From an uncultured Acidimicrobiaceae bacterium (GTDB lineage: Bacteria > Actinomycetota > Acidimicrobiia > Acidimicrobiales > CAIXPF01), in the NCBI GenBank assembly GCA_963775055.1, contig CAVZHK010000001.1, positions 461,402 to 525,401 on the forward strand: a DNA stretch of 64,000 nucleotides, given 5' to 3'. Below, piece after piece: positions 35,883 through 62,341 of the stretch. The notes beneath the pieces were generated by a model. The model was given only the letters and a program-made list of their open reading frames with translations. It did not search any database and was not told where the DNA came from. The translations under genes and the position numbers were made by a program. Every line of letters starts with the position of its first letter. Positions within the stretch are counted from its first letter, which is position 1.

Positions 35883-35927
35883 TAAATGCGGTGGGCACGG
35901 CGAATGTGCCACGCTCACCGGCATCAC

Positions 35928-43449: not shown

Positions 43450-43653
43450 TTGTCTGCCAAGCTCACCTACACCGTTACCGAGGCCGCCCAGCTGCTCGGC
43501 ATCTCCCGCACAAGCGCCTACGACTGCGTGCGGCGAGGCGAGATCCCCGCCCTTGTCCTCGGCCGGCGCATCGTGATCACCCGCAACGCCCTTGAACACC
43601 TGCTCGGCCCACTCCCCATGGCCGCCACGCACGTCGACCGCGACCACTCGTGA
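43450..43653 (+). CDS. xis: excisionase-family helix-turn-helix DNA-binding protein
   Basis: The TTG start is preceded by ggagga. The 67-aa product has the MerR-type Xis signature YTVTEAAQLLGISRTSAYDCVRRGEIPALVLGRRIVITRNALEHLL. Confidence 0.7.
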   Translation: MSAKLTYTVTEAAQLLGISRTSAYDCVRRGEIPALVLGRRIVITRNALEHLLGPLPMAATHVDRDHS

Positions 43654-43819
43654 CGAATCCCAACACACCCCCAGCTCGCTCCCGTGCGACCGCAACGACA
43701 ACGCGGCCAACACGTCTGAAATGAGGCTCACAGACTTGCCGGTTCCCCAAGGGGAACCGGCTGAAGGCACAACACCACCACCAAGCCACCGCCACGCCGC
43801 AGCTACCTCACCCAACGCC

Positions 43820-44362: not shown

Positions 44363-44669
44363 ATAGCGACATCTGGCATCAACTTCACCTCGACGCCATC
44401 AACTCCAACTACACCACTGGCCACTGGGTCGGCCTCCATATCGAACACTGGGCACAACCCAATGAGTCCCGCCCTTTGGGGCCAGCAAGCCGCTGCTGAC
44501 CACAGCCTCGGCGAGGGCCCGTGTGTGTGTGTGTCGGCTTCGCATCTCACGGAAAATCTCACGCACTCGTTGCGACACGCTAACAATGGGCACGACGGGA
44601 CGAACTCGCTGCGGACAGAACGCCTGCTCAGGGCGTCGCGAGGCGTCTCAACGGACGGCTGTCAAGGCC

Positions 44670-44713
44670 CTCTTAATCCGCAGGTTCTCGGTTCGAATCC
44701 GAGGGGGCGCACC
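44670..44713 (+). repeat. att repeat copy 2 (44-bp core of the tRNA-Lys 3' end)
   Basis: The sequence ctcttaatccgcaggttctcggttcgaatccgagggggcgcacc is identical to 35958-36001. The next 20 nt (gcaaacgggcaggtcagggc) are a diverged version of the tail seen in copies 1 and 3. The upstream 30 nt retain a weak D-arm-like ctcaacgg. Confidence 0.9.
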
Positions 44714-44828
44714 GCAAACGGGCAGGTCAGGGCGGTAGTGGACGCCCGGAGCGGCCGATCACCCGGCAGAAAGTTTGGCGCCAGCGGCGCGTTAGACCGA
44801 CTGATAGACACCCCGATAGACTGCGCCG

Positions 44829-46280
44829 GTGGGGCAGGCCGCGGACCCGTTTGAGTCCAAGATCGACCGCTCGGGGTGCCACCACCTCTGGACGGGTAGC
44901 AAGTCCGCCCGCGGTGCCGGACAGGTACGAATTGGCGGCAAGCTGCACACGGCGGCCCGGATCGCTTGGGAACGGGTCCACGGGGCCGCGCCGGAAGGCG
45001 CCAAGGTCCTGTCCTGCCCCACCGAACCGGCCTGCGTTCGCGTCGAGCATCTCCACCTGAAACAGGCGAAAGCGAAAGACATCGGGCGCCGCTCAACCCG
45101 CGGCAGCGGCTCAATGAGCCAACTCGGACCGGACACCTGGAAACTCACCGTCGACGCTGGCCGCGACGGTCACGGTCGAAGGCAGCGGGTCTACCGCACC
45201 GCGAGAGGCACCCGAGCAGACGCAAGCCGAGCACTCGCCGCCCTGGTCACAGAAATAGGGGAAAGCCCTGCCGTGCCAACGTCCGCTTCGAGAAACTTGA
45301 CCGTCAACGAACTGGCTGAGTGGTACCTCGCGTTCGCCCGAGACGAACGCGGGCTCGAGCATTCCACCTTGGTCGGCTATCGCGAGGTCTACGACAACTG
45401 GCTGCGACATCACATCGGGCACATGAAAGCGGCCGGGCTCGACGGCGCCGCTCTCGACAACGCGTTCGGCCGCATGCGCCGAGGCGGGATGTCCGACAGC
45501 CGCATGAACAACGCCCGGGCGTTGATCTCCGGGGCCTACAAGTGGGGCCAACGCCACCACAAAGTCCCCGTCAACCCCGTCGATCGCTTCGAGTTGCCCT
45601 CCAGCTCCAGCGCCCCCAGGCCCACCGCCACCCCTGAGCTGGACGAGCTGCTCCGGCTACTCAACGGGGCCGAGGACCACGATCCCGAACTCGCCCCGGT
45701 GCTCAAGCTCGGCGCCACCACCGGCATGCGCCGAGGCGAACTCTCAGGTTTGCGCCGAGACCGCCTGCGCCTCGACCGAGGCGAACTGGTGGTGGACACC
45801 GCCATCAACGACGCCGGCGGGATCGTCGTCGAGAAACCCACCAAGACCAAACACAATCGCACCGTCAGCCTCGACCCCGTCACGATCGGCCTGTTGCGCC
45901 AGCACCTCGCGGGCATGGACCAGCGCGCCGCCACCTGCGGCGCCGCTGTGCCCGAGAACGGTTTCGTGTTCAGCCTCGACCCCACCTGCCGGACGCCGAT
46001 GCGACCCGAACTGATGACCAGACGCATGCGACAGCTCCGCGAGGCCCTGGGCATCCGCCTCGGCGAGTTCGACGCCACCATCCTCGCGTTGCGCAAGTGG
46101 ACCAGCACCGAGCTGATGGACGCCGGCTTCAACCCCTCAACGGTCAGCGGCCGCCAAGGCCACAGCGTGCAAGTCATGCTGGCCCACTACTCCACCCACC
46201 GCCGCTCCGCCGACCAAGCCGCCGCCCAACACCTCGGCCACAAAGTCCACGGCCCCCAGGAAGACACTCACAGCACATGA
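44829..46280 (+). CDS. tyrosine recombinase/integrase B with an in-frame N-terminal HNH-like Cys/His extension
   Basis: The 483-aa ORF is uninterrupted. Residues 1-95 read FESKIDRSGCHHLWTGSKSARGAGQVRIGGKLHTAARIAWERVHG...CPTEPACVRVEHLHL. The canonical integrase part starts at MSQLGPDTWKLTVDAGRDGHGRRQR (ATG at 45114). The catalytic region has ATTGMRRGEL, LRKWTSTE, GHSVQVMLAHYS. Confidence 0.8.
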   Translation: MGQAADPFESKIDRSGCHHLWTGSKSARGAGQVRIGGKLHTAARIAWERVHGAAPEGAKVLSCPTEPACVRVEHLHLKQAKAKDIGRRSTRGSGSMSQLGPDTWKLTVDAGRDGHGRRQRVYRTARGTRADASRALAALVTEIGESPAVPTSASRNLTVNELAEWYLAFARDERGLEHSTLVGYREVYDNWLRHHIGHMKAAGLDGAALDNAFGRMRRGGMSDSRMNNARALISGAYKWGQRHHKVPVNPVDRFELPSSSSAPRPTATPELDELLRLLNGAEDHDPELAPVLKLGATTGMRRGELSGLRRDRLRLDRGELVVDTAINDAGGIVVEKPTKTKHNRTVSLDPVTIGLLRQHLAGMDQRAATCGAAVPENGFVFSLDPTCRTPMRPELMTRRMRQLREALGIRLGEFDATILALRKWTSTELMDAGFNPSTVSGRQGHSVQVMLAHYSTHRRSADQAAAQHLGHKVHGPQEDTHST

Positions 46281-46538
46281 TCCATGGTGCGGCGCCAGCC
46301 CCATCCAAGCCGCACCCACTCCGGGCACCGATTCCATCCGGGCAGGGGAGTTGCCGCGGCCACGAGACCATCACGCACGGTTGCACAGACCATCACCCGT
46401 CGCTACGGACGACAACGCTCCCTGCTGCGGTGACCACCCGTCACCCCGAACAAGTGGCGCCGACCCCATAGCCGGGCTCGAGAGATGCGCTTACAAGCCG
46501 GCGTGGCTCGGCCAGGATCAGCGAGCCAGCACCAGTGA

Positions 46539-46591
46539 CCAATCCCGTGATTGGATGGGTCATTGCCATGTGATTCATAGTGGTATATGGT
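46539..46591 (+). promoter_or_regulatory. putative operator palindrome plus promoter for a leaderless RES-Xre operon
   Basis: The palindrome CCAATCccgtGATTGG lies at 46539-46554. TTGCCA lies at 46563-46568, then 17 nt, then TATGGT at 46586-46591. This ends 6 nt before the ATG at 46598. Confidence 0.35.
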
Positions 46592-46597
46592 TGTGCT

Positions 46598-46987
46598 ATG
46601 GTGACGGTGAGCAGGCCCGAGCTGCGGGCACATGATCATGCGATGCGAGTCCCTTTCGCAACAGCAGCGAAAGAGCTGCGAGATCTGCTGACACCTCGGC
46701 TTGTCGCCTACCTCAGCGGGGTTCGCGAGACACGAGCCGTTCACCAGTGGGCCGACGGGACCCGAGAAGCGAAATCCGGCGAGGTCGAGGACCGCATTCG
46801 CTTCGCGTTGCAGGTCGCGCTGCTGCTCAGCGAGCACGACGCACCACGTGTCGTCCAAGCCTGGTTCCAAGGACTGAACCCACACCTCGGGGACCGCTCA
46901 CCCGCAAGACTCCTTCGCGAAGGTGATCTCGACGAATTCGGTCCCATGGTGCTCGCCGCGGCGAGAGCCTTCCTCGTCGGCGGGTGA
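46598..46987 (+). CDS. Xre/ParS/MbcA-type antitoxin (DUF2384-like)
   Basis: The ORF has LVAYLSGVRETRAVHQWADG and WFQGLNPHLGDRSPARLLREGDLDEFGPMVLAAARAF. It overlaps the RES gene by 4 nt. An alternative GTG start lies at 46580. Confidence 0.7.
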   Translation: MVTVSRPELRAHDHAMRVPFATAAKELRDLLTPRLVAYLSGVRETRAVHQWADGTREAKSGEVEDRIRFALQVALLLSEHDAPRVVQAWFQGLNPHLGDRSPARLLREGDLDEFGPMVLAAARAFLVGG

Positions 46988-47655
46988 GACAGGCCGCCGC
47001 ACCGACGGTGCTCTACCGGCTCGGGCGACGCCCCGACCCGTGGGCATGGCCGGACTGGGCCTACGCCGAGGCCGACGGCACGTTCGGCAACCGCTACGAC
47101 GACCCCCAGGGGATCTACCGGGTTCTCTACGCCTCAACGCAACGAACTGGAACCTTCGTGGAGTGTCTCGCCTACTACCGTGCCGACATCCACGTCATCG
47201 CGGAACTCGCAGCCATCATGGGCGACGAGGGCGACAACGAACCTCCTGCCCCCGGCGTCGTGCCTAACGAATGGGTAGACCAACGCTGCGTCGGGCGGGC
47301 CGTACTTTCCGGGGACTACGCCGATGTCGGCCACCACCAATCACTCGCCGAGCTACGCGCCGCCCTCGCCGCCCAAGCAGTCCACCACGGCCTGCACGAT
47401 CTCGACGCCGCCACCATCCGACTGACCGCCCCCCGAGCCCTGACCCAAGCCATATCCCGCTACGTGTTCAGCCAAACCATCAACGGCCACCGACGTTGGA
47501 ACGGGCTCACCTACCTCTCAAAGCACGGCGACAACCTCCGCAACTGGGCCATCTTCGAGCCCGCAGATCCCGACATCATCGACATCACCAATTTCACAAA
47601 CCAAGACCCCGGCCTCAACGCCGCTCTCACACTCCACAACCTACAACTCGGGTAA
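46984..47655 (+). CDS. RES domain toxin
   Basis: The 223-aa ORF has GNRYDDPQGIYRVLYASTQRTGTFVECLAY (R...Y...S/E layout) and NGLTYLSKHGDNLRNWAIFE. Confidence 0.7.
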   Translation: MRQAAAPTVLYRLGRRPDPWAWPDWAYAEADGTFGNRYDDPQGIYRVLYASTQRTGTFVECLAYYRADIHVIAELAAIMGDEGDNEPPAPGVVPNEWVDQRCVGRAVLSGDYADVGHHQSLAELRAALAAQAVHHGLHDLDAATIRLTAPRALTQAISRYVFSQTINGHRRWNGLTYLSKHGDNLRNWAIFEPADPDIIDITNFTNQDPGLNAALTLHNLQLG

Positions 47656-47824
47656 CGACCCAATCCTCCATTCACGCGTGACTATTCCGACCGGTCCTCG
47701 CCGGTGGGGCGTGCATCTGCTTCCCCCGCGGGTGTCAGTCCTCAGGGACGCAAGCTTCTTCCTGTGGCGCTGGCACGATCATGGTCGTGACGATGCTTAT
47801 CCAGGAGGATCCAAAACAGGCCAT

Positions 47825-49604
47825 ATGACATATGCTGAAATAGAGCAAGCGATCGCCGGGCTGTCTACTCTTCACGAGATCAACAACGTCTGGCCAGCAG
47901 ATGCCGATGATCGTCCCACCGACGTGCTGTACGCGCTGGATTCTATAGCGTTAGGACTGTCATTCTCCAAATTCCTCCCGATCAGCGTACGACCGGCGTC
48001 CGGTGGTCCGCCTTGGGTCCACGTAGACGGGAACCCCTCAGAAGTCGCCCTGAGACTGTCCTCCGCCCTGGACCACCTCTCGACGCCGATTCTGCGCAGC
48101 CGGATCGGGCTTTTCCTCTGGTGGAACCTGCCCGACCGGAGCGTCGGGATACTCAATCAGACGCTCGAAGCGTCAGTAGTCGTGGCGCGCACGTCTCCGG
48201 ACCCGACGGATAGGTTGTCAACGATCTGGGCGGCATCTGAGCTGGCCCGATCGACGAGGCGCCATGGCGATCTCGACGCCTTGCGTGCCTGCACCGCCGA
48301 CGCCGCCTTTATGCTGGCCTTCGCCGACCATGATGCGGCCGAACTCCTAGGGCTGCGGATGGACGGCGGCCTCATGTTCCTCTATGGCATCGCTGCCGCG
48401 TGGGATCCGCTTCCAATCCGCCGCGAGTTGAACGCGGTTTGCGAGATCGCGGCAGCGCCGAATCCATCCGTTCACCTTGCCCTCCCCTCACCTACCGTCC
48501 ATTGATTGGATTCACAGGATTCGATATCTACTCGCCAGCGGATCCGACGACGAGCGTGTACGGGTGGTGGAGGAAGTCGTTGCCGATCGCCAACTTGCGG
48601 CCAGGCGGTCTCCTTTCCCTCGCGGAGCGGCACCGCCGCTGATGGAGGCCGCAGAGTTGTCTCGCTCCATCGAAGACGCCGCCTTCGAAGTTCAGCAGTT
48701 GCCGAACAAGTCCCCTTTGCGGTCCCGAATGCAACAGCTCACAGAAGATCTCGTAGTCGAACTCCAAGACCTCAGCTGGCGGCACAACCACCCGCGGCGA
48801 TCCCTCGTGTCCTCAGAAGATCTGAGCGAGGATGCGCAAGCGGCCCGCGACGAATGGCGCTGCGAGTTGGCGGACGTTCCGCCGTCTGTCGAGCATCGCT
48901 TGGTTTGGCTGGGAAGCCGGGGTTCGATCCTCGGCGCTCCTGCGGGACTTGAGGTCGCAGCGCAAGAGCACCGCCGTAGCATCGGTCAGTTCCGCTCGAC
49001 TGTCCGGGCGTACGGTTTCATGGCACCGGACACCCTCCGAAGGCAAGACTTGGACGCACTTGCGTTCGCCGAGATGGCTCGACATCGATTTGTGGCCTGG
49101 GGAGAGGTCGCCGCCGAGGCGTTGCAGACCGCCAATTTGGATGTCGAATTGACACTTCTCTTTCAAGGTGCGTTGGTCGCCGAAGCTGTCGCCGAGCGAT
49201 TTGCCCATGCACTGAGGTTGTTCGTCGCCGGCGACGCCGACGCTGCCGCCCACATCGTGATACCAAGGATCGAAGCGACTATTCGACAGGTCGCGATCGC
49301 CCGGAAGATACCGGCGTTGGAAGTCGCCTACCGCTCATTGGGAAACATCTCGTTTCTCGACCGGCTGCTTCGTCGGATCAGCGACGGCGCTCCCCTGAGC
49401 GACCGTCCAGTGTGGAATCAGTTCCGACTCCTGTTGACCGACGATCAATGCGTAGGCATTCGAAACGTCTCAAGTCACGGGCTCCGGCGAGATATTGGGA
49501 TGATAGAATCAACGTCGATCGAGGAGGCGGCCCTTCTGCTTCATGTCGCAGCCTTTCTCTCAACCTTGGACAAGGCCGGTAATTGCAAAGAAATGTCGCA
49601 TTAG
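47825..49604 (+). pseudogene. large hypothetical protein (about 590 aa if ORFs 47678..48505 and 48477..49604 are joined), tentatively DUF4209-like at the C-terminus
   Basis: The two long ORFs overlap by 29 nt in adjacent frames. The DNA is visibly AT-richer than its surroundings. The C-terminal motif LLLTDDQCVGIRNVSSHGL is reminiscent of DUF4209, from memory only. The ATG at 47825 is the first Met after the GC drop. Confidence 0.5.
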
Positions 49605-50332
49605 TCGACAATAATGATTGCAACGAAACCGCTCACCATCGACCCACCTGGTCAAGATCTTTAGATCAATGATGTCAGCATCCTGCGTCCGGTGAAGTGG
49701 AGCGATCTGCGCCGATGTCCTCCGACCATCCGCGGGCGCCTGATCGGCATGCCCTTTGAGAGTGACCATCGGTGCTGGGGACCTGGGCCGGGCAGGCGAC
49801 GACGCAACCCGCCCGTTGATCTCTACCGAGCGCACCTCGTCGGGCGGGCACTGGTCATCTTCGGCCACGCCATCACCAAGATGGAGTTCGGCACCGAACT
49901 TTGTCGGCTGGGGCGCAGTCCGCCGGACCAGACTCGCCGCAGTGCGCGGCACCGCCAAGATCTCCTGGCCCGACCCCGAAACTGCTGGTGCATCGCGAGG
50001 CGGAAGGCCGCGTGCTGCACGGGACGGCACGCGCTCGCTCAAGCGGCCCACACGGCAGAGGCCTGGATCGCCGGGACGACCGTCCGGCGAACATGCGGTT
50101 GGTCTCCAACGACGCCGTGTCCCAACGAGGCACCGAATTCGAACTCGTCACCGACCTTCCTCCACCGAGCGCATAGATCGAATGGATCCACCGGCAACGG
50201 CCACCGAGCGCGAGCCCCAGGGAAAGACCGAACCGGTCGCTATATCCGCTGGCCGTGTCGCCCTCGCGTGCCGTACTGCGGACAGCGCAAGCACGTTCCC
50301 CAACCGTCGACCTGCGGATTACGGCCGGGGTC

Positions 50333-50581
50333 TTGGCGCCTAACTTGGCGCCAAACTCCACGGACTGGGGCCCACCAAACCGCGCTAGGCGGACGACCGT
50401 CTGTACAGAAGCCCACGTGAGAGCACTAGATCCCACCCACTGGACAGTCCTTTCGGGACTCTTAATCCGCAGGTTCTCGGTTCGAATCCGAGGGGGCGCA
50501 CCACAAACATGCAGGTCAGAGTCGGTGCGACCCTCTGCTGTAAGCCATCGTGGTTGCTTTGGCGCCTAACTTGGCGCCAAA
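50333..50581. repeat. 23-bp direct repeat ttggcgcctaacttggcgccaaa (50333-50355 and 50559-50581) bracketing att copy 3
   Basis: The two copies are identical when read from the sequence. Each contains the perfect palindrome TTGGCGCCAA. Confidence 0.85.
50456..50523 (+). repeat. att repeat copy 3 (68 bp identical to copy 1)
   Basis: See copy 1. There is no 5' half of a tRNA upstream. Confidence 0.9.
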
Positions 50582-50770
50582 GTCGGCCGACCTCGTGGTC
50601 GGGGTGGGAAACGAGGCCGGAGCGGTGATCGAGTCCAAGTGTTCATACCCCTGCTAAGCGCAGCGGGCCGGCCGAATTCGACACCTTGTCCCGAGATTTC
50701 CCTGCGAGCAGCGAGCCGCTCGGGGGTGACCACCCCAGCTGTGGCCGTCACACTCTGGCGGCCACAGGCG

Positions 50771-51102
50771 TCAGGAGGTTTGGTCTGGGTGAGCGTCCTC
50801 ATATCCCACGCTAAGCGCGTCCGGCAGGCGAGATTCGACAACCAGTTCCTCGAGGCCGCCGTTGCGGTCTGACGTGAACACGATCCGAGAGCCGTTGAGC
50901 GACCACTCCGGGTTCCGTCGAGAACGTCGTTGGCGGTGAGCCGCCGCGGCGCGCCCCCATGCAGGTCCCGCACGAAGATCTCAGGTTCGCCATCCCGATC
51001 CGGTGCAAAGACGAACGAGCCCACCGAGGGACTGGACCGACCACAAGCCACCGACATGGCGACCAGAGCCGCCACCAATGACGGCGAGCGCAGCGCGGCC
51101 AT
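50771..51102 (-). pseudogene. small lipoprotein with TolB-like PD40 beta-propeller repeats, frame break near 50910
   Basis: The N-terminus MAALRSPSLVAALVAMSVACG carries a lipobox. It is followed by FVFAPDRDGEPEIFVRDLHGGAPRRLT. The next frame gives PEWSLNGSRIVFTSDRNGGLEELVV, with a stop at 50771. Confidence 0.5.
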
Positions 51103-51356
51103 ACGCGCAGAACCGTGAACCCGGTCCCGGGGGTGTGAGCGGCTCGACGCGTCGTTCAACAGGGCCGCTACCACCTTTGGGTACGGCCCGCCGCCGCCGC
51201 CACCGTGTAAGCGCCCAGCGGTCCCATAAGCGCACGTCGCACGCCAACCCGACGGGGAGGTGTCATGGGCCCGTGCAAGCGGCTCAGTGCGTAGCGGCAG
51301 GGGATTTGGGTGTGCTGATGCCGGCGACGAAGTAGCAGGCCGCCGTGATCAGCACG

Positions 51357-52890
51357 GGAGGATGTCCCGAGTCTCGTGGAACTTCGGGGTGGTCCGGGTG
51401 TGATGTTATGCGGTCTTGGCGAGTGGTTGGTGGATATTGCTGTGTAGGGCGAGGGTGGCGGCGAGCTGTGCGAGTTGCCGGTGTCCTTTGACCCTGCGGT
51501 ATTGCTCTTCGGCGCAGAGGATCCCGGCGGCCGCCCACCGCAGGCGCATGTCCCCGGCCCGGCGGTGCGGGTTCGCTCCGGTGGGCGGGGTCCAGTTCCT
51601 CACGTTGTGAGCGTGGGCTTTGACGATCTCGATGGTTGATTCGACCGGGTTCGTGGTGGCCAGGGTCCGGGCGAGGGTGCCGTTGATCCCGAGCTTGTTG
51701 ATGGTCACGGTCTCCGCGAGGCCTTCGCGTAGTGATGCTGCGGCGTCAGGCCAACGCAGCTCCAACTGGGCCGCGAGCGCTTCAAGAGCGGCGGTGGCTT
51801 CGCGCCAGTCCGGGTTCGCCCACGCCGCCCGCAGCTTGCGCCGAACAAAGGACTTCTCGACCTTGGGGAGGTAGTCAAGAACGTTCCGTTCCTTATGAGC
51901 CCTGCACCTGGCGATGACGTAGGGCTGCCCGTCGAACACCCGGCGTATGGCGGCATGTAAGCCTTTGCCGCCGTCCAGCACGAACAACACCCCCTCGGAG
52001 ACATCGAGCCCGCGTTCCACCGCCCCGGGGAGCAGGTCCGAGCAGACGGTGCCGTTCTCGGTGGTGCCTTGCACCAGACCGAGGCAGTGCTTGTTGCCTT
52101 CGGCGTCCACGCCGAGGGCAGTGATCATGGCTTGGTCGCCTAGGTCGAAGCCGTCGATGTAGATCACCAACCACCGGCTCCCGGACAGGTCCCGATCACG
52201 GAGCTCAGCCAGCCGGGCGGCGGTGGCGGTCACGAACCGGCGTGACACCGCTGATTTCGAGGTTGATCCGGCGGCGATGTCGCCAATGGGTTCCAGGGCA
52301 GCGGTGGCGTAGTTCCGGGTCGACACCCCTGCCAGCATGGCGGTCACTGCTCGTTCGGAGAGCAGATCGACCTGCTGGAAGCAGTCCCACGTTTCCAGGC
52401 GGACCTCGCCGCCTTCAACAGCACGGACCCGGGGCCGGCGGAGGGGGACGCGCCGCCCACCAACAGGGACCGACCCGTCCTCCTGACCGTGACGAGACGC
52501 GCGTTCGGGATGGTTGGTGGCGTCCTTTCGGGCCGACGATCTGATCGACTTCCGCCGCCATCAGCTCTTGCATGACGCCCAAGCCGATCTGCACCGACGC
52601 TGCGAGCAGTCCTTGGCGGACCGTTGCTTGGAACGTTTCGAGCTGGCCGGCGGCGATCTCCGCCAACCGGCCGGAAAGTTCGGGGTGGGACAGGTCAACC
52701 ATCCCGATCCCTGGCATCAGCCGCAAGCCGGCTCTCACCCCTACCGGACACCGGCTTGGACGTGGTTGACTTCGACATGTTGGTCCTCCTTCTCGACATC
52801 GAGTGTTTGAGACCCCTCGAGCCTGCCACCGGCAGGACCCGAGGAGGAGGACCACCCCTCTCAGAATCCACGACTACCGGGACAACCTCC
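51357..52890 (-). mobile_element. IS256-family insertion sequence (about 1.53 kb) with imperfect roughly 40-bp terminal inverted repeats
   Basis: The ends are ggaggatgtcccgagtctcgtggaacttcggggtggtcc and ggaccacccctctcagaatccacgactaccgggacaacctcc. Flanking AGCACG(G) is duplicated on both sides. Confidence 0.85.
51406..52717 (-). pseudogene. IS256-family (mutator-type) transposase, 1-nt frame break near 52496
   Basis: The N-terminal ORF ends with ...GPKGRHQPSRTRV. The adjacent frame continues RHGQEDGSVPVGGRRVPLRRPRVR...AMLAGVSTRNY...YIDGF...VIARCRAHKERNVL. The junction gtc[t]cgtcac carries one extra base. Confidence 0.8.
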
Positions 52891-53207
52891 AGCACGGCGA
52901 ACCACACACTGAATGCCACGACAGCGTCCGTGCCCCAGTCGTCACCAAGGATGGGCAGGCTGACGAGATAGATCACCGGTAGCGACCCGGCGAGCACCGC
53001 TGACGCCTTCAGCCGCTTCCGCCTGAGTCGAGCACCGTCGGTGACATCCATCGAGCGCGCCAACTTGCTGCGTTGTGTGACACCTGCAGACCTTCGTCCG
53101 CACCCGATGGTGCTCGAATGTTGCGGAAATCCTGGTCACAGCGCAGATTGCGGGCCCTCGAGGCCGATCTCGTATTTAACCGGAGGAGCCCGTGGGATGG
53201 AGTTGCA

Positions 53208-54080: not shown

Positions 54081-54899
54081 TCACGGGACGTCAACGATGG
54101 TCATGATCTCCTCATCCTCATCGTTGGTGTTGTCGCTGAACATGTATGTGTGCGCGGCCTTCAGGGTGAAGGTCAACACGACGGTGGTACCCGGTGCGAT
54201 CGATTTGAGGCCGCCGGGAAAGTCGATGGGTAGCGGCGGCGGACCATTCTGTCCGCCTTCCATCCAGGCGCCGACCTCTTCACCGCCGCTGAGATCGGTG
54301 CCACTGGGGACTCCTCCGATGTTCATCTCGTGGGGGCGCGTGCCGGTGTTGGTGACAGCGACGACGTGCGTGCCGGCTGTGAGGGTTGGGACCGTGATCG
54401 CGTCGTCGCCGAGCGTGATGGCGAGGTCGGCCTTCGGCACGACGGTCTGCTTCGAGTCGGTCACCGTGAACATTGTGATCATCCCGTGTTCGAGGTGGTT
54501 CATGCCATCGGCGGCGGGAAAGTGGCAGATGAAGGCGTACGTGCCGGGAGTGAGTGTTCGCGCGTAGCCGAGTTGGTTGCCGGCTCCGATGGCGGTGGCA
54601 CCACCCGGGTCGGCGATCAGCACCGCGCTGTCTGGGGCGTCTTTCTCGAACAGGGCTGCCGCCTCCTCGATCGTGGTGCCCGGTTCGAGTTGGGCGAGGC
54701 CGAGTTCGTGCGCCAGCGAGCCGACGTTGGTGATGTCGAGCTCGACGGACGGTCCGGTGATGGTCTTGGGCATGGTGATGGAGTAGTCGGCGAGCTCCAC
54801 CTTGACCGGCCCGGCGGAAAGGCTCGGTGCGTCACTGCCGCACGCGGAGACGAGCGTGGCGGCGAGGACGGCGACAGGGATGAGGGCGAGATGTTTCAC
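54081..54899 (-). CDS. secreted lipoprotein with two cupredoxin-like domains
   Basis: The GTG at 54899 is preceded by ggagga. A signal peptide and lipobox are present (LVSAC). Domain 1 has candidate copper ligands (HELG ... YAFICHFPAADGMNHLEHGM). Domain 2 (VAVTNTGTRPHEMN) lacks the Cys. Confidence 0.65.
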   Translation of the reverse strand: MKHLALIPVAVLAATLVSACGSDAPSLSAGPVKVELADYSITMPKTITGPSVELDITNVGSLAHELGLAQLEPGTTIEEAAALFEKDAPDSAVLIADPGGATAIGAGNQLGYARTLTPGTYAFICHFPAADGMNHLEHGMITMFTVTDSKQTVVPKADLAITLGDDAITVPTLTAGTHVVAVTNTGTRPHEMNIGGVPSGTDLSGGEEVGAWMEGGQNGPPPLPIDFPGGLKSIAPGTTVVLTFTLKAAHTYMFSDNTNDEDEEIMTIVDVP

Positions 54900-55046
54900 G
54901 GCAGTTCCTCCGAGTGACGGCTGGGTGTAGTGCACGATGCGCCCAACGTCGTGGACGGCACATCGGCCTCCGGTCACCGGTTTGTCACAATGGTCTCGTG
55001 ACACCGGCCCCTTGCATGCGCCGCTCAGCCGGTCGAAGGTGATCGG

Positions 55047-57038
55047 GTGACTCGCGCGTGGGTTCGGCACGGACTGCTCGGTACCGCCGTTGTGCTGGGC
55101 GTCGCGGGAGCCGTCGGATCGCTGCGTACCGGTGACTTGCCCGGCAACGGTGACAGTTGGGGACTCGCGGTCTCGTTCATCGGCTTCGCGGTGTTGGGTT
55201 GGGCCGTGAGCGGACGGCGACCGGAGCTGCTGATTGGTTGGCTGCTTCTCGCTGGTGGCACCGTTGGCGTCACCGCTTTCCTCGCCTCGTGGTGGTCGTT
55301 CCTATCGTTGATCCATGATCCGGGGTCCCTGCCCGGTGGTCCCGTCGCGGCGTGGCTTGCGGTGTGGCTGTCTGCACTGCCGTGGACGCTCGTGCTCGTC
55401 GCGCCGCTCGTGTTGTTCCCGACCGGCCACACGCGCAGCCGTCGCTGGTTCTGGTTCGGAACCGCGATCGGCGTGATCATCGGCACCTTGGTGACGGTCG
55501 CTGCCGTGGTCTCGCTTCCGGTGGCGGCGCGCAATGCGGCGGAGCTCATCGACGCCCCCGGCATCGCACAGGCGGGCGCAGCCGATTTTGCGCTCGGTCT
55601 GCAGGCGATCGCCCGGCTGGTCGCGTTCGTTGCCACCGTGGTCGGCCTCGTCGGCCTTGTCGTCGCTCGCCATCGTGTTCACGATGAGGACCGGCGGCCG
55701 TACACATCGGCGCTGGTCGGTGCCGCTGTCGTTGTCGCCATGTTCATGATCGACGCGCTGGTACCTGTCCTCACCGGTGAGCGGTACGCGCTGCCCGAGG
55801 CGGTCACGGCACTGGCGATCGTGGCGCTGCCAACCTCGATCGCGATCGCAGTTGTCCGTTTCCAGCTGTATGAGCTGCGCGCCCTTGTCAATCGCTCGGC
55901 CCTCGTTGTGCTCACGGGCGTCGCGCTCACCGCGGTGTATCTCGGCGTTTTGACGCTGTTCGCTGCTGCCGTTCGCGACAGCACGCCTCTCACAGTGTCG
56001 GGCGTTGTTGCCGCAGGTGCTGTCGTAGCAGTGAGCGCGCCGGTCGCTGCAGCGGCGACGCGGATGACTCGACGATGGTTCGGTCGCGGCGACGCGCCGG
56101 CATTGATGGCCACTCGCTTCGCCGAGCAACTCCCCGTCGACGGCGATCCGCTCGCCGCCATGCGCGTCCTGGCCGAGACGATGCGCAACGAGTTGCGGCT
56201 CGGCTCGATCGAGTTGACCGTCGATGGACTCGACAGCACCAGAATCGGCGAACCCGGCGGACCGGTCACACGCGTCGAGCTGCGTTACGGGCAATGCCGT
56301 GTCGGTGACGTGATGGTCACCGCCAGACAAGGCGAGTCACTCGCCGCCGTCGACAGGCGGACGCTGAGCGACATCGCCGGATACGTGTCGATCGCGGCCG
56401 AGGCGATCCGCGTCAGCGAGGATCTGCGCAGCGCTCAACACGCGCTCGAGAGCGCCCACTCCGAGGAGCGACGCCGCGTGCGCCGCGACCTCCACGACGA
56501 TGTCGGTCCAACCTTGGCCTCAGCACGATTGAAGCTGGCCGCCCAACGGCGCCATCTGCCCGACGGAACCTCGGTTGAGGACATCATCGACCAACTCGCC
56601 GACGCAATCCGCGGGCTCCGGCGGGTGGTCGATGGACTGCAACCATCAGTGCTCGAAGACGTCGGTCTCGTCCCCGCACTGCAGATCCTCTTGACCGACA
56701 TCCGCCAGACGACCGGGATGCACATCACCTTCGACGCGCCCTCGATGCTGCCAGACCTACCCACAGCAACGTCCAGTACGGCTTACCGCGTGGTAGCGGA
56801 AGCACTCGCCAACGTCGTACGCCACAGCCGAGCGACGGTGTGCACGCTTCGCGTCGACCACGATGACGGCATACTGCACATCGAGGTTGCCGACAACGGC
56901 CACGGCTTCGACACCTCGATAAAGACGGGGATGGGCTTGCGCAACATTGCCAACCGGGCCGGTTTGGCGGGCGGCATCGCCACCATCTCCAGCTCCCCCG
57001 AGTCGGGCACTACCGTCGTACTGGAGGTACCGGTGTGA
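55047..57038 (+). CDS. membrane-bound sensor histidine kinase (HisKA_3/NarL-type), multi-TM N-terminal domain
   Basis: The 663-aa ORF has about 330 aa of hydrophobic helices, with RFQLYELRALVNRSALV. It has the H-box RRRVRRDLHDDVGPTLA and the HATPase region (VVAEALANVVRHS, DNGHGF, GMGLRNIANR). Confidence 0.85.
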   Translation: MTRAWVRHGLLGTAVVLGVAGAVGSLRTGDLPGNGDSWGLAVSFIGFAVLGWAVSGRRPELLIGWLLLAGGTVGVTAFLASWWSFLSLIHDPGSLPGGPVAAWLAVWLSALPWTLVLVAPLVLFPTGHTRSRRWFWFGTAIGVIIGTLVTVAAVVSLPVAARNAAELIDAPGIAQAGAADFALGLQAIARLVAFVATVVGLVGLVVARHRVHDEDRRPYTSALVGAAVVVAMFMIDALVPVLTGERYALPEAVTALAIVALPTSIAIAVVRFQLYELRALVNRSALVVLTGVALTAVYLGVLTLFAAAVRDSTPLTVSGVVAAGAVVAVSAPVAAAATRMTRRWFGRGDAPALMATRFAEQLPVDGDPLAAMRVLAETMRNELRLGSIELTVDGLDSTRIGEPGGPVTRVELRYGQCRVGDVMVTARQGESLAAVDRRTLSDIAGYVSIAAEAIRVSEDLRSAQHALESAHSEERRRVRRDLHDDVGPTLASARLKLAAQRRHLPDGTSVEDIIDQLADAIRGLRRVVDGLQPSVLEDVGLVPALQILLTDIRQTTGMHITFDAPSMLPDLPTATSSTAYRVVAEALANVVRHSRATVCTLRVDHDDGILHIEVADNGHGFDTSIKTGMGLRNIANRAGLAGGIATISSSPESGTTVVLEVPV

Positions 57039-57706
57039 CCGTCGACGTCATCCGTTTGGTGATTGCGGACGACCATCCCGTCTACCGCGACGGACTCGCC
57101 CGGCTGCTCGCCGAGATCGGCGGTTTCGACGTGGTCGGTGTTGCTGCCGACGGCCTCGAGGCAGTCGAGCGAGCTGCCTCGCTCGCTCCTGACGTCGTCG
57201 TGATGGACATTCGCATGCCGAACCTCGACGGCATCGAGGCTACCCGTCGAATCACCTCGGCGAACCCGAGCACGGGTGTGGTCGTGCTCAGCATGTTCGA
57301 GGAAGACGAACTCGTTTTCGCCGCGGTCCGAGCCGGAGCCCGCGGCTACCTGTTGAAGGACGCCGACGAGGACCAGATCGCCGCGGTGCTACGAGGGATC
57401 GCCCACGGCGAGGCGATCTTCGGTCCGACAACGGCGCGCCGTTTGCTGGAGATGCTCGGACGGGTGCCGAACCAGCCCGATCGCCCAGCGCCCGACCCAT
57501 TCCCACAGTTGACCGAACGCGAACGCGACGTTCTCGAGCTGCTCTCACGCGGAAAGCGCAACGCAATGATCGCCGGCGAGCTGTTCCTCAGCGAGCGGAC
57601 AGTGCGCAACTACGTGTCGAACATCTTCACCAAACTGCAGGTAGCCGATCGTGCCCAGGCAATCGCAGCCGCCCGCGACGTCGGCATCGGCCAGCCACCG
57701 AAGTAG
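57035..57706 (+). CDS. LuxR/NarL-family response regulator
   Basis: The receiver domain has VIADDHPVYRDG...VVVMDIRMPNLDG. The C-terminal HTH has LTERERDVLELLSRGKRNAMIAGELFLSERTVRNYVSNIFTKLQV. The start overlaps the kinase stop. Confidence 0.9.
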   Translation: MTVDVIRLVIADDHPVYRDGLARLLAEIGGFDVVGVAADGLEAVERAASLAPDVVVMDIRMPNLDGIEATRRITSANPSTGVVVLSMFEEDELVFAAVRAGARGYLLKDADEDQIAAVLRGIAHGEAIFGPTTARRLLEMLGRVPNQPDRPAPDPFPQLTERERDVLELLSRGKRNAMIAGELFLSERTVRNYVSNIFTKLQVADRAQAIAAARDVGIGQPPK

Positions 57707-57968
57707 CGCACGAAGCCGAGCTCGACTGCCTCACCGACGCCGGTCGCCTCGCCATAGGGGCAAGCCAACCAAAGTCACGTCGAGAACTCAACACACTACA
57801 CGTCCGGGAACCAGTCCGCGAACACGCTCTCATCGACCACTCGACCCAGGTTCATCGCGTAGAGCCGGATCAGTGGAAGCAGCCCGAGACGGTGCCGGTG
57901 CCTTGACGAATCGATGTGAGTGACTGGACATGAGATGCTCCTTTCGGAACGGTTTGGGGTAACAGTGG

Positions 57969-58445
57969 TCAGTCGCAGTTGAAGACGCCGTAGGCCTCGC
58001 CGAGTTGGTCGAGTTGCGTGCGGCCCGGTAGGTCTTGCTGCTCCGCGTTCACCATGGCATCGGCGAAGGCGGGCTCCGTGGCAGCGAGGTCAAGGCCGTC
58101 GGCGATGACATCGGCGGCAAGCGCTATGGCCTCGGCGACGAGCTCGTCGCCTTCGGGCGGCGTCAGGGCGCGGAAGGCGGCGATGTGCTCGCGGTAGATG
58201 GGCCCGAACTCGGCCGAGAAAGCTGCCAGTTCAGCGGCGGTTGGTGGGTCGGACGTGATCGTTCGTGAGCCGATCTCGTCTCGGACGCCGCCGAGCTGGT
58301 CGCAGAAGATGAGGTCGGCCTGCTCAACGAACTGCGTCTTCGATGGTCCTGACGCGGTGTCATCGTCGCCGCATCCGGCCACGACCCCGATCAGCGCGGC
58401 CCCCAATACCGCTGCCGTTACCAGTCTCCGGCTTCCGTCGTGCAT
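57969..58445 (-). CDS. lipoprotein of unknown function
   Basis: Translation from the ATG at 58445 reads MHDGSRRLVTAAVLGAALIGVVAGCGDDD, which includes a lipobox. It is divergent from the second kinase gene. Confidence 0.55.
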   Translation of the reverse strand: MHDGSRRLVTAAVLGAALIGVVAGCGDDDTASGPSKTQFVEQADLIFCDQLGGVRDEIGSRTITSDPPTAAELAAFSAEFGPIYREHIAAFRALTPPEGDELVAEAIALAADVIADGLDLAATEPAFADAMVNAEQQDLPGRTQLDQLGEAYGVFNCD

Positions 58446-58597
58446 GTGTCGCTCCCATTCGCTCGTGGACAATCAGAGCGTCGGGTTGGCGCCGTCCCGG
58501 TGTCATGGTGCTGGAGCCACCGCGCTGGCGGGCAAGACGCCCGGGGCACCCGAGGCCGCAGTCCCCAGACATCGGGACGGTCCAACGATCATGATGG

Positions 58598-60628
58598 GTG
58601 GCGATGAACTCCCTTTCAACGACGCGTGGATCAGAGGCCGAGGCGGCTAGCGCATGGTGGCCGCTGGCAGCAGTCGTTGTTTGCTTCGCGATCGTGCCGA
58701 CGAGCATGACGCTCGCGTGGCGGTCCTTCGAGACCGAGGGCCAGGACCTGTGGGCGAATGTCGGGCTTGCCGTGGCTTGTCCCGCTGCAGGTGCGTTGAT
58801 CCTGCGGAGGGTTCACAACCTCGTTGGATGGCTGCTGATCGAGGCAGGTGTCGCCGCTTCTATCTTGCTGATCACGCTCACCTACGCCGAGCGTGCGCTT
58901 GTCGACCGGCCCGGATCACTCCCGGCAGGATCGTTCGCCGCGTGGGTAGCTAACTGGGCGTGGGTGCTCGGCTTTCTCCCCGTGATGACTCTTCTGCCCT
59001 TGCTGTTCCCCGACGGTGAGGTCCTGTCGCGGCGGTGGCGATGGTTCGTTGGGGTAGCGGTGGCTGCGATCGCCATCGGAGTCCTTGGCGGGATGTTGAT
59101 GCCGGAGATTCCGATCCGCGACCGTGAGCCCATCGCCAACCCGCTTATCCGAGTTGACCTTGGCGCCATCACCGGCATCGCCGAGACGCTATTCGCGCTC
59201 TGCGTTCCTGTCGGCCTACTCTCCGGCCTTGCGGCCGTCGTCGTGCGGTGGCGCCGAGGCTCGGTGAGTGTCCGCCAACAGCTGAAGTGGCTGGTGCTCG
59301 CGATATTGGCGGTCGCCGCGGCCGTGACCGTCGGCACGGTGCTGCTGGCCGGTGTCGCCGAGGGTGTCGCCGCCGCCGTCGCAGTGGCGTTGCTCCCCGC
59401 TGCGATCGCAGTGGCCGTCGTTCAGCATCGGCTCTACGACATAGACGTTCTCGTGAACCGCGCTCTCGTCTACGTGATCGCGGGCGGACTGTTACTCGCC
59501 GCGTACCTCGCGGTCGTCGCAGCGGTGGCGGCGGTCATCGACGGCGCTGTGGTCGGACCGGCCCTGGGCACTGGTGTAATCGCCGTGGCCTTCGCGCCGG
59601 TGCGCGTCCATGTGCAACGACGGGTCAACCGGTTCCTCTACGGCGACCGCGGCGACCCGGCCACAGCGCTCGATCGCCTTGGCTCCCGGCTGGCCGAGCT
59701 CGGCGACGCTGAGCGACTGCTGGACACGTTGGCAGGCACCATCGCCGAAGCCCTTCGGGTGCCCTATGTGGTTGTGTCAACCGTCGACGGCCAGACGGGA
59801 AGCGTTGGGCGCCGACCGGCCCGGTGGATGCATGTCGACCTCGTCGACCGAGGCGAACCGATGGGCACGCTCAAGATCGGGCGTCGAAGTGAACGCGAGC
59901 GGTTTTCCCGCGACGACGAACGTCTGGTGGAGGTCCTCGGGCGACAAGCCGCGCTCGTCCTGCGCGCCGAGAACCTTCAGCACGACCTCAGGCGTGCCCA
60001 AGCCCGTCTGATCGCCGCCGTGGAGGATGAGCGTCGCCGTCTTCGGCGCGACCTGCACGACGGGCTCGGCCCCACCCTGGCCGGTATTGCCCTCAGCTCC
60101 GCCGCCGTCGCCAACATGCTGGAGGGCCACGACGTTCCCGCGAAGGCGAGCGATCGGCTCAAACGAATCGGCGAACAGGCCCAGGCTGCGGCGGAGGACA
60201 TCCGCCGACTCGTCTACGGGCTACGCCCTCCGGCCCTCGACGAGCTCGGGCTCGTCGGCGCGTTGTCGGCTCACGCCGCGACACTCGGCGGTCCCGCCGG
60301 CATCGGAGTCTCTGTCCAAGCCGACATCGACGACGCCGAGCTGCCAGCCGCGATCGAAGTGGCGGTTTTCCGGATCGCATGCGAAGCGCTGGCCAACACC
60401 GTCCGCCATAGCGACGCCGCCGCCGCGTCGCTGAAAATGTGGATCGACGGGTCGATACACCTCGAGGTACGCGACGACGGCCGGGGCCTTGCCGCCGGTT
60501 GGCAACCCGGCGTCGGCATCACCTCCATGCGCGAGCGGGCCGCCCAGTTAGGCGGCACTCTCTGTGTCGCGTCCAGCCGGACCGGCGGCACGATCGTCGA
60601 GGCCCAGCTCCCCATGGAGCTCCTATGA
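58598..60628 (+). CDS. membrane-bound sensor histidine kinase, paralogue of 55047..57038
   Basis: The 676-aa ORF has the same architecture. It has HRLYDIDVLVNRALVYV, a GAF-like middle region, the H-box RRRLRRDLHDGLGPTLAG, and the ATPase motifs ALANTVRHS, DDGRGL and GVGITSMRERA. Confidence 0.85.
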   Translation: MAMNSLSTTRGSEAEAASAWWPLAAVVVCFAIVPTSMTLAWRSFETEGQDLWANVGLAVACPAAGALILRRVHNLVGWLLIEAGVAASILLITLTYAERALVDRPGSLPAGSFAAWVANWAWVLGFLPVMTLLPLLFPDGEVLSRRWRWFVGVAVAAIAIGVLGGMLMPEIPIRDREPIANPLIRVDLGAITGIAETLFALCVPVGLLSGLAAVVVRWRRGSVSVRQQLKWLVLAILAVAAAVTVGTVLLAGVAEGVAAAVAVALLPAAIAVAVVQHRLYDIDVLVNRALVYVIAGGLLLAAYLAVVAAVAAVIDGAVVGPALGTGVIAVAFAPVRVHVQRRVNRFLYGDRGDPATALDRLGSRLAELGDAERLLDTLAGTIAEALRVPYVVVSTVDGQTGSVGRRPARWMHVDLVDRGEPMGTLKIGRRSERERFSRDDERLVEVLGRQAALVLRAENLQHDLRRAQARLIAAVEDERRRLRRDLHDGLGPTLAGIALSSAAVANMLEGHDVPAKASDRLKRIGEQAQAAAEDIRRLVYGLRPPALDELGLVGALSAHAATLGGPAGIGVSVQADIDDAELPAAIEVAVFRIACEALANTVRHSDAAAASLKMWIDGSIHLEVRDDGRGLAAGWQPGVGITSMRERAAQLGGTLCVASSRTGGTIVEAQLPMELL

Positions 60629-61278
60629 CCGGGAGCCCCACTCGCGTCCTTCTCGCCGATGACCACCCCGTGTTCCTCGACGGGCTCAGCGCGCTGCTCG
60701 AATCACGCGGCTTCGACGTCGTCGGCCAAGCGGCGACCGGACGCGAAGCGCTCTCGCTGGCCCGGGAACTCCGGCCCGACGTGGTCGTGATGGACCTCCA
60801 CATGCCCGATGTCGGCGGCGTCGAAGCCACGATCCAGATCACCCGGTCGGTACCGGAAACCGCCGTGCTCGTGCTCACCATGTTCGACGACGACACCTCC
60901 CTCGCTGCCGCGCTGCGAGCCGGGGCGCGCGGCTACCTGCTCAAAGGTGCGGGCCAAATCGAGATCGCCCACGCCATCGAAGCCGTCGCCCGCGGCGAAG
61001 CCATCTTCGGCCCGAGCGTCGCCGACCGCATCCTCGGTCGGTTCTCCGATCCGAACACGGACGCTCACCCGTTCCCCAACCTCACCGATCGCGAGCGCGA
61101 GGTGCTCGCGCTCCTCGCTGGCGCCTCATCGAACGCTCAAATCGCCCGCGCCCTCGCGCTCAGCCCCAAGACGGTCCGCAACCACGTGAGCAATATCCTC
61201 ACCAAGCTGCACGTCACCGATCGCACCCAAGCCGCGTTGCGCGCCAGCGAAGCAGGCCTCGGCCCCGCCCACACGTGA
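60625..61278 (+). CDS. LuxR/NarL-family response regulator, paralogue of 57035..57706
   Basis: The ATG at 60625 overlaps the kinase stop (ATGA). The ORF has [12 protein letters not shown]...[12 protein letters not shown] and [45 protein letters not shown]. Confidence 0.9.
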
Positions 61279-61370: not shown

Positions 61371-62341
61371 CCGCCCGGGACGAACGGGGACTTGAGCATT
61401 CCACCTTGGTCGGCTATCGGGAGGTGTACGACAGCTGGCTGCGAGACCAGATCGGGCATCTGACAGCGGCCAAGCTCGACGGCGCCGCCCTTGACAACGC
61501 GTTCGGACGTATGCGCCGCGGCGGGATGTCCGACAGCCGCATGAACAACGCTCGGGCGTTGATCGCCGGGGCGTACAAGTGGGGCAAGCGCCACCACAGG
61601 GTCGCCGCCAACCCCGTCGACCGCTTCGAGCTTCCCACGAGCGCCAGTTCGCCCAAGCCGACCGCTACCCCTGAGCTGGACGAGCTGCTGCGCCTGCTGA
61701 ACGGCGCGGAGGACCACGATCCCGAGCTCGCCCCGGTACTCAAACTTGGCGCCACCACTGGCATGCGCCGCGGCGAGCTGTCCGGCCTGCGCCGCAACCG
61801 ACTCCGCCTCGACCGAGGCGAGCTGCTGGTGGACACCGCCATCAACGACGCCGGCGGGATCGTCGTGGAGAAGCCCACCAAGACCAACCGCAACCGCACC
61901 GTCAGCGTGGACCCCGTCACCATCAGCCTGCTCCGGGAGCACCTCGCGGACATGGACCAGCGCGCCGCCACCTGCGGCGTCGCCGTGGACGGGGACGGGT
62001 TCGTGTTCAGCCTCGACCCCACCTGCCGCACACCGATGAGACCCGAGCTGATGACCCGACGCATGCGCCAGCTCCGCAAGACCCTGGGCATCCAACCTGG
62101 CGAGTTCGACGCCACCATCCTTGCGCTACGCAAGTGGACCAGCACCGAGCTGATGGACGCCGGCTTCAATCCTTCCACCGTCAGTGGCCGACAAGGGCAC
62201 ACCGTCCAAGTCATGCTGGCCCATTACTCCACCCGCCGCCGCTCCGCCGACCAAGCCGCCGCCCAACACCTCGGCAACAAGGTCCACGGCCGCCGAGAAG
62301 ACCCCAGGCCACCTGACCGACGGCACGGAACTCCTCCGTAG
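61371..62341 (+). pseudogene. 5'-truncated tyrosine integrase, close paralogue of integrase B
   Basis: Collinear similarity to 45345-46270 starts abruptly at about 61371. In a ~236-nt stretch I compared by eye I counted 26 mismatches. The N-terminal ~170 codons, including the arm-binding and HNH-like parts, are missing. Confidence 0.8.

Follow-up and report, generated by a model that had tools for sequence, protein, structure and literature searches.

Is the six-gene block at positions 54081-61278 of the window, the 64,000-nucleotide stretch of an uncultured Acidimicrobiaceae genome analysed here, one sensing module, and what could such a module sense? The block carries two histidine kinase (HK)/response regulator (RR) pairs, each divergent from a lipoprotein (Lpp) gene, and an initial annotation, made from the sequence alone, had read it as a single horizontally acquired module of duplicated pairs. 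Comparison with other genomes indicates that only the left 3.6 kb, encoding Lpp1, HK1 and RR1, forms a conserved three-gene cassette, which is found only in uncultured Acidimicrobiia and appears to move between genomic islands. That this left triad is a self-contained, mobile, copper- or redox-responsive three-component signalling cassette is a reading to which we give about an even chance. The features of the block are the following, with lengths in amino acids (aa) or base pairs and TM denoting transmembrane helices:

54081-54899, minus strand: Lpp1, 272 aa, two-domain cupredoxin lipoprotein (open reading frame list and Pfam Cupredoxin_1)
54900-55046, unstranded: lpp1-hk1 divergent regulatory region, 147 bp (multi-locus alignment)
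54936-54966, unstranded: imperfect inverted repeat GATGCG...C(A/G)CATCGG (invariant columns in the alignment of the lpp1-hk1 gap)
54983-55003, unstranded: palindrome TGTCAC-N9-GTGACA, candidate RR1 operator (core bases invariant across orthologous loci)
55047-57038, plus strand: HK1, 663 aa, with a 10-TM sensor (residues ~1-345), linker, HisKA_3 and HATPase_c
57035-57706, plus strand: RR1, 223 aa, NarL/LuxR-type, REC and GerE domains (Pfam and NCBIfam)
57969-58445, minus strand: Lpp2, 158 aa, orphan lipoprotein (open reading frame; GC content at third codon positions 0.80)
58446-58597, unstranded: lpp2-hk2 divergent region, 152 bp
58598-60628, plus strand: HK2, 676 aa, with the 10-TM family domain, partial GAF, HisKA_3 and HATPase_c
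60625-61278, plus strand: RR2, 217 aa, NarL/LuxR-type, REC and GerE domains

All six open reading frames, placed in the open reading frame list exactly where they were first annotated, are intact and show the third-position GC bias typical of genuine genes, in a genome of ~66% GC. The kinase and regulator reading frames overlap in both pairs, as had been noted, by 4 nt at GTGA in HK1/RR1 and at ATGA in HK2/RR2, and RR1 is translationally coupled to HK1, as is RR2 to HK2. Furthermore, the two pairs share the same architecture, as originally described: Pfam recognises HisKA_3 (E = 1.5e-8 in HK1 and 3.2e-14 in HK2) and HATPase_c in both kinases, and Response_reg (E ~1e-27) and GerE (E ~1e-20) in RR1 and RR2 alike. 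The H-boxes (DLHDD at residues 481-485 of HK1, DLHDG at residues 485-489 of HK2) and the N and G boxes are present, and the receiver motifs ADDHP, VMD(I/L) and GYLLK were found in both regulators; the presumed phospho-acceptor Asp of RR1 lies in VMDIRM (residues 56-61). By domain content and motifs, HK1/RR1 and HK2/RR2 are both predicted to be two-component systems of the HisKA_3/NarL class. The GAF-like linker first assigned to both kinases holds in part, with a partial Pfam match in HK2 (E = 5e-5) and none in HK1. Matches to the NCBIfam equivalogs MctS/R, MadS/R, NarL, LiaS and UhpB are confined to the cytoplasmic core and all lie far under the curated cut-offs (for example, 120 versus 700 bits for MctS and 157 versus 300 for MadR), and identity with any of these equivalogs was therefore ruled out. 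Thus, neither pair is a named characterised system, a possibility that had been raised together with the initial annotation.

The genome scan covered close relatives of Lpp1. In every locus with enough contig, the Lpp1 gene is divergent from an HK1 orthologue (72-80% aa identity), which is accompanied by an RR1 orthologue (83-88%); linkage is full in L001/L016, L002, L003, L007-L010 and L012 and partial in L005, L006, L011 and L013. A more distant kinase, 46% identical to HK1 (P0227, in L021, with partial copies in L022 and L023), also keeps a divergent cupredoxin gene and an RR 66% identical to RR1; the L021 cupredoxin is 40-44% identical to Lpp1 and has the same putative metal ligands, in domain 1 only. 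The genetic linkage expected of a three-component system is therefore conserved in all informative loci, down to 46% kinase identity, and the suggestion that kinase, regulator and lipoprotein travel together is borne out for the left set. Across pairs of loci, the three genes diverge in step (r = 0.66-0.84, rising to 0.97-0.99 once L021 is included), and the ratios of nonsynonymous to synonymous substitution rates (dN/dS) are 0.19-0.28 for Lpp1, 0.20-0.25 for HK1 and 0.10-0.18 for RR1. All three genes are under purifying selection, and the proposed selected module is real as far as the left triad is concerned (dN/dS 0.10-0.28).

Whether the window is compared with these loci or the loci with one another, DNA similarity is limited to the stretch at positions 54122-57710 of the window (3.6 kb). 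The flanks of the triad differ from genome to genome and include an XhoI-type restriction-modification pair, Fic, an integrase, truncated gene fragments and a DDE transposase. Because the 3.6-kb unit recurs with unrelated flanks in all other genomes, the triad would be accessory, horizontally moving DNA, not syntenic core DNA. The proposal of horizontal acquisition accordingly fits the left triad, with its recurrence, unrelated flanks and mobile remnants, but does not extend to the right set, which is not part of the unit: HK2, RR2 and Lpp2 are absent from every HK1-orthologue locus examined. No output genes are shared across the neighbourhoods of the triad loci, in line with the original remark that no obvious ones lie nearby, and conserved neighbouring output genes were rejected on the grounds that the flanks are unrelated between loci. 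Since no other gene co-travels with the triad, yet selection maintains it in many contexts, the triad appears to be functionally self-sufficient.

Some individual loci have features of their own. In L001/L016 (7847-9884), the HK1 orthologue is split into two frames at residue 213/214, by either a real frameshift or an assembly error, and the public gene call consists of a 412-aa kinase and a spurious 259-aa open reading frame; in L001, from one Acidimicrobiales metagenome-assembled genome (MAG), a heliorhodopsin gene (4831-5607) lies ~4 kb from the cassette. L017 (Acidimicrobiales MAG CAVZHQ010000006) retains only a 240-nt lpp1 remnant (8000-8242; 92% nucleotide identity, residues 116-194) and a 191-nt match (13961-14151) to positions 52891-53081 of the window. 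These matches sit in unrelated surroundings, with genes for an OmpR-type system, an FtsX permease and PadR, which suggests that the cassette was lost or decayed there. L002 has a metal-related neighbourhood at 4030-6611 and 15797-20335 (also in L011): genes for a CsoR-like repressor, a lactamase_B-rhodanese protein and TauE lie together near the cassette, and ~6 kb away on the other side, a second GAF-HisKA_3 kinase/regulator pair is divergent from an HMA-domain P-type ATPase.

How the cassette might be controlled is suggested by the gap between lpp1 and hk1. An alignment of 11 loci, in which the 147-bp gap is extended by 30 nt into the coding sequence at either end, has a mean column identity of 88%, a value in which the intergenic part is not scored separately, whereas the synonymous divergence of the flanking genes between the same loci is 0.2-0.7; by this comparison, the region appears to be constrained beyond neutral expectation. 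The palindrome TGTCAC-N9-GTGACA occurs once per locus, always in the intergenic gap, in 13 orthologous loci, and is unique in the 64-kb window, where 0.21 chance matches are expected. The invariant CCCTTGCA also lies within this gap. We infer that RR1 binds the palindrome, which would thus be its operator. The palindrome was not found in the lpp2-hk2 gap, and an operator shared by both divergent regions was rejected for this reason. A sigma-70 consensus scan of the lpp1-hk1 regulatory region yielded nothing useful.

The case for a metal or redox signal depends on Lpp1. This protein has the lipobox VSAC (LVSAC), with Cys20, which is invariant in 14 close orthologues; Lpp1 and Lpp2 both combine a signal peptide with a lipobox Cys, as expected of lipoproteins. 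The Pfam model Cupredoxin_1 matches Lpp1 with 27.3 bits against a cut-off of 27, and an AlphaFold2 (AF2) model (predicted local distance difference test score, pLDDT, 85) consists of two beta-sandwich domains, residues 32-151 and 159-271. Domain 1 contains the putative ligands His64, Cys125, His135 and Met140, of which His64 is invariant and the other three are at least 90% conserved in 27 homologues. In the kinase-linked branch, domain 2 lacks the Cys/His/Met set, and yet the domain is conserved. Model and conserved columns agree with the initial description of two cupredoxin-like domains with a ligand set in the first only, and the modelled fold and the His...Cys...His...Met set together identify Lpp1 as a probable cupredoxin.

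The loop that had been described as unusually long is indeed so: residues 125-140 (CHFPAADGMNHLEHGM) have the spacing C-x9-H-x4-M, and in a profile alignment the Cys-His gap exceeds that of 6kol ('Blue (Type 1) copper domain protein') by 5 residues. In classical type 1 copper proteins, the Cys-to-His loop has 2-4 residues, and Lpp1 does not have the short loop of these blue copper cupredoxins. In a PDB profile search, the cupredoxin family profile weakly matches blue copper proteins, namely, 6kol (E = 7e-4) and auracyanin B (1ov8), which have the same beta-sandwich and the same ligand order His...Cys...His...Met as Lpp1. Apart from the insertion, the Lpp1 family differs from 6kol in its tandem domains, with the second site lost in the kinase-linked branch. 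The best Foldseek matches in the PDB are multicopper oxidases, two-domain laccases and NirK (E ~1e-8). Two-domain laccases such as SLAC (3cg8) have tandem cupredoxin domains like Lpp1, but the TM-scores are only ~0.25, and direct reading of the Lpp1 sequence revealed none of the HxH motifs of the trinuclear cluster. A multicopper oxidase or two-domain laccase identity of Lpp1 was rejected on these two grounds.

Among 5.8 billion proteins, Lpp1 has ~50 homologues, of which the ~30 close ones all come from Acidimicrobiia/Ilumatobacteraceae MAGs. Distant homologues, 21-29% identical overall and not linked to kinases, keep the ligand set, with the same motif in both domains. Conservation of the His/Cys/His/Met set favours a metal or redox function, so that, of the metal, redox or envelope signals that had been envisaged, the first two are tentatively preferred. 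As the distant two-site homologues, such as P0034, are not found beside kinases, kinase linkage seems to define one branch of the cupredoxin family. At the P0034 locus (L019, 6001-7687), tandem paralogues of 276 and 279 aa, with the motif in both domains, lie in housekeeping-like surroundings, with no two-component system nearby.

The counterpart of Lpp1 in the membrane is the sensor domain of HK1. In the AF2 model of HK1 residues 1-361 (pLDDT 78), ten TM helices are present, both termini are cytoplasmic by the positive-inside rule and all outer loops have at most 10 residues, which implies that HK1 lacks an extracytoplasmic sensing domain. The LY(E/D)...NR motif (RFQLYE...NRSALVV in HK1, HRLYD...NRALVYV in HK2) had been rightly recognised in both kinases but was taken to end the membrane domain, whereas in the HK1 model it forms a short helix that lies on the cytoplasmic side between TM8 and TM9, with one further TM helix to follow. 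The 10-TM domain spans 55047-56081 in HK1 and 58598-59650 in HK2. The first ~340 residues of HK1 and HK2 have no Pfam match, and neither Pfam nor NCBIfam holds a model for the membrane part of the family, in which Pfam sees only GAF, HisKA_3 and HATPase_c where these are present; no similar solved structure was found for the domain.

The domain search recommended in the initial annotation thus returned no Pfam model but a very large unannotated 10-TM family. An exhaustive profile search against cluster representatives at 50% identity detected 29,522 clusters at E ≤1e-3, 17,834 at ≤1e-10 and 5,408 at ≤1e-30. Stand-alone proteins of ~400 aa account for 124 of the top 150 hits, and 17 hits have two or more copies of the domain, in a ranking biased by the stand-alone forms that the query profile itself held. 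Some family kinases of 1,000-1,100 aa bear two tandem 10-TM copies. One stand-alone protein (P0069; L029, 5001-6182) is surrounded by genes for glycoside hydrolase and arginine deiminase and has neither a kinase nor a regulator in its vicinity, and such forms are therefore not simply split kinases. The partners of the family vary with lineage, from a cupredoxin (HK1) through an ABC transporter (the nearest relative of HK2) to none (the stand-alone member). The cupredoxin-linked kinases share the outer-loop segments ELLDAPGI and GQQYxxPE (TM5-6 and TM7-8), which are missing from HK2 and from P0164.

In the mechanism that we favour for the left triad, Lpp1 would be lipid-anchored on the outer face of the membrane, with copper held by His64, Cys125, His135 and Met140 of domain 1, and the ten-helix bundle of HK1 would pass on to the HisKA_3/HATPase core either the state of Lpp1, in terms of metal or redox, or membrane stress related to copper. 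HK1 would then phosphorylate RR1, which would bind TGTCAC-N9-GTGACA in the 147-bp divergent promoter region and thereby control both lpp1 and the hk1-rr1 operon, and Lpp1 would act at the membrane surface through copper buffering or oxidation. Copper binding, the nature of the signal and contact between Lpp1 and HK1 are parts of this scheme that we infer. As the cassette is accompanied by no further gene, the only conserved candidate for an effector is Lpp1. It is probably also a feedback modulator of HK1, given the missing outer domain of the kinase and the second, metal-free domain that Lpp1 retains.

Such a cassette would be of a known kind, that is, a two-component system with a genetically fixed extracytoplasmic partner. 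In MtrAB-LpqB and CseA-CseBC, a lipoprotein gene is linked to a two-component system and the lipoprotein modulates the kinase; these differ from the cassette in lipoprotein fold and kinase class, in their co-directional gene order and in being core genes. CinRS is a pair of the OmpR/HisKA class with a periplasmic sensor domain, whereas HK1/RR1 are of the NarL/HisKA_3 class, with a 10-TM sensor and no outer domain. The likeness to CinRS-CinAQ lies in a two-component system beside the extracytoplasmic cupredoxin gene that it supposedly controls, with no large resistance operon: in Pseudomonas putida, cinA, a copper-inducible azurin-like gene, adjoins cinRS (PMC3056050). Unlike CinA, Lpp1 is two-domain and lipid-anchored and has the C-x9-H-x4-M loop, and nothing in the cassette corresponds to cinQ. 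The plastocyanin-like CopI, a copper-tolerance protein in the periplasm of Rubrivivax gelatinosus (PMC7558416), has the role proposed here for Lpp1, an extracytoplasmic single-site cupredoxin effector under copper stress; it consists of one domain and sits in a copA cluster, and we claim no sequence homology. In Streptomyces, the autophosphorylation of SenS is modulated by HbpS, which is secreted, and the cluster has its regulatory elements in the intergenic region between hbpS and senS (PMC4991794). As in the cassette, the gene of a secreted cofactor-binding accessory protein thus stands beside a membrane kinase and regulator, with intergenic regulatory elements; however, HbpS is octameric, binds haem and iron and is no cupredoxin, SenS has a different sensor architecture, and here too no sequence relationship is claimed.

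Several observations weigh against copper- or redox-responsive signalling by the triad. All sequences compared come from MAGs of uncultured organisms, with a glacier-fed stream, groundwater and Danish soil as source environments, and copper genes, namely, one of CsoR type and one for a P-type ATPase, occur near the cassette in L002/L011 only. Other kinases of the family have other partners, which suggests that the sensor domain is generic, and the alignment of the HK1 outer loops contains no conserved His, Cys or Met. A distance of 15 bp between the centres of the palindrome arms is uncommon for a dimeric HTH site. In Lpp1, the C-x9-H spacing exceeds that of the best-matching solved blue copper protein by five residues, such that the site is perhaps not a type 1 centre of the classical sort; the ligands are gone from domain 2; and the cupredoxin of L021, although it has a signal peptide, lacks a lipobox.

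One alternative, possible but doubtful in our view, is that HK1 senses copper or envelope stress directly within its membrane bundle and Lpp1 is only a regulated effector, a cupredoxin that buffers or oxidises copper like CopI or CinA and takes no part in perceiving the signal. Lpp1 is, after all, the only conserved gene that shares the regulatory region, without an effector, a mobile cassette would not be selected, cupredoxin genes are among those that known copper systems induce (PMC3056050, PMC7558416) and relatives of the kinase have other partners or none. However, such an account has to accommodate an HK1 that has neither an extracytoplasmic domain nor conserved metal ligands in its outer loops, the lineage-specific outer loops of the cupredoxin-linked kinases and the selection that keeps the degenerate domain 2, which suggests a non-metal role such as docking. 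The converse would be that Lpp1 is a true co-sensor, whose copper-loading or redox state, conveyed by docking of the ligand-free domain 2 onto the short outer loops of HK1, gates the kinase; we consider this unlikely. If true, it would be the first case of a cupredoxin providing the input to a two-component system, and the 10-TM domain would be a general transducer relying on partners, such as the cupredoxin, an ABC transporter or orphan lipoproteins like Lpp2.

Lpp1 could also be an electron-transfer cupredoxin, with its oxidation state informing HK1 about extracytoplasmic or respiratory redox conditions, so that the cassette would sense redox or oxygen instead of copper load. Redox-active type 1 copper sites have just such a His/Cys/His/Met set, actinobacteria already provide, in HbpS-SenS-SenR, a case of redox stress conveyed to a kinase by a cofactor protein outside the cytoplasm (PMC4991794) and, in L007, the cassette adjoins an NrfD/4Fe-4S/EB_dh-type respiratory complex. 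Nevertheless, respiratory neighbours occur in this one locus only, no redox partner gene co-travels with the cassette and the unusual loop length leaves the redox properties of Lpp1 unpredictable, and we rate such a relay as decidedly unlikely. Least probable, and very much so, is a function independent of copper, in which the cupredoxin fold would bind another ligand or an envelope component and the system would detect envelope stress or antimicrobials, like many HisKA_3 systems. Compatible with this are the best NCBIfam matches of the kinase core, which include LiaS, MadS and NarX/Q-type models, all far below cut-offs, the ABC transporter linked to the nearest relative of HK2 and the ligand-free cupredoxin fold of domain 2. 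The invariance of His64 and the at least 90% conservation of Cys125, His135 and Met140, even in distant kinase-unlinked homologues, argue for a metal site and hence against it.

What, then, is the right-hand set? Lpp2 has the lipobox VAGC (VVAGC), with Cys25, and two further cysteines, Cys48 and Cys157, which form a possible disulphide pair. It has no Pfam or NCBIfam match, even at E = 5, and the search of 5.8 billion proteins returned only its own public copy, in agreement with its first description as a lipoprotein of no known family. Proteins identical to Lpp2 and HK2 exist on a 783-kb public contig, whereas exact-sequence look-ups of HK1, RR1, Lpp1 and HK2 from Met37 returned no record. 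The identical public HK2 protein (P0077, 640 aa) begins at Met37 (58706), a start that would drop the first TM helix, which aligns with TM1 of HK1 and of P0164; the longer start (GTG at 58598 or ATG at 58604) fits the 10-TM topology better. The nearest relatives of HK2 (L024-L028, P0240, 42% identical) are preceded by a co-directional ABC_tran and ABC2_membrane pair, not by a lipoprotein gene. The expectation that kinase, regulator and lipoprotein would travel together thus fails on the right, where the nearest relative of the kinase accompanies an ABC transporter and the lipoprotein has no homologue. On this evidence, the Lpp2/HK2/RR2 set, which was encountered in this genome alone, would belong independently to the kinase family of HK1 and has an orphan lipoprotein for a partner.

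The two sets are, moreover, not recent copies of each other. HK1 and HK2 are 34% identical over their full length and RR1 and RR2 54%, and no relationship between Lpp1 and Lpp2 was found on sequence comparison. HK1 is closer to P0080 (60%) and to P0090/P0227 (46%), and HK2 to P0164 (42%). A recent tandem duplication was rejected on account of these identities and of the closer relatives elsewhere. The paralogy that had been proposed thus survives as homology and not as recent duplication, and the 7-kb block, with HK2/RR2/Lpp2 never beside the left triad in other genomes, is not one module; as each kinase has nearer relatives elsewhere, it consists of two separate members of the kinase family that adjoin one another. 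The two pairs appear to be homologous but distinct lineages within one very large family.

The notable points of the left cassette are its cupredoxin partner, the unusual spacing of the metal site and the very large unannotated 10-TM sensor family. It is a candidate for the sensing of copper or redox conditions in Acidimicrobiia, a group of actinobacteria that is abundant in freshwater and soil but has hardly been studied by experimental genetics, and, being only 3.6 kb long and self-contained, it could be transferred as a whole to a model actinobacterium. The cupredoxin subfamily combines the C-x9-H-x4-M site with a branch that keeps a metal-free second domain under selection, and the 10-helix domain, with its tens of thousands of clusters and lineage-varying partners, offers a tractable entry to sensing by kinases without an extracellular domain. 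The practical payoff would be modest unless the co-sensor role of Lpp1 holds.

The window around the block contains a tRNA-Arg/His/Lys cluster at 35664-36002, followed by genes or remnants of mobile elements:

36478-37239: integrase fragment
41498-42109: IstB fragment
44829-46280: integrase
51406-52347: IS256-type transposase fragment (split)
61406-62341: integrase fragment

Of the flanking features first reported, the IS256 fragment, the truncated integrase and the tRNA were confirmed, but the decayed TacAT pair is only weakly backed, by a TacA-like remnant with E = 0.14. GC content falls to 0.62-0.66 across the mosaic at 35664-52855 and at 61406-62341. With its tRNA adjacency, integrase and insertion sequence genes, and flanks unrelated in other genomes, the region has the properties of a genomic island, and the mosaic 3' of the tRNA cluster looks like a composite, decaying one.

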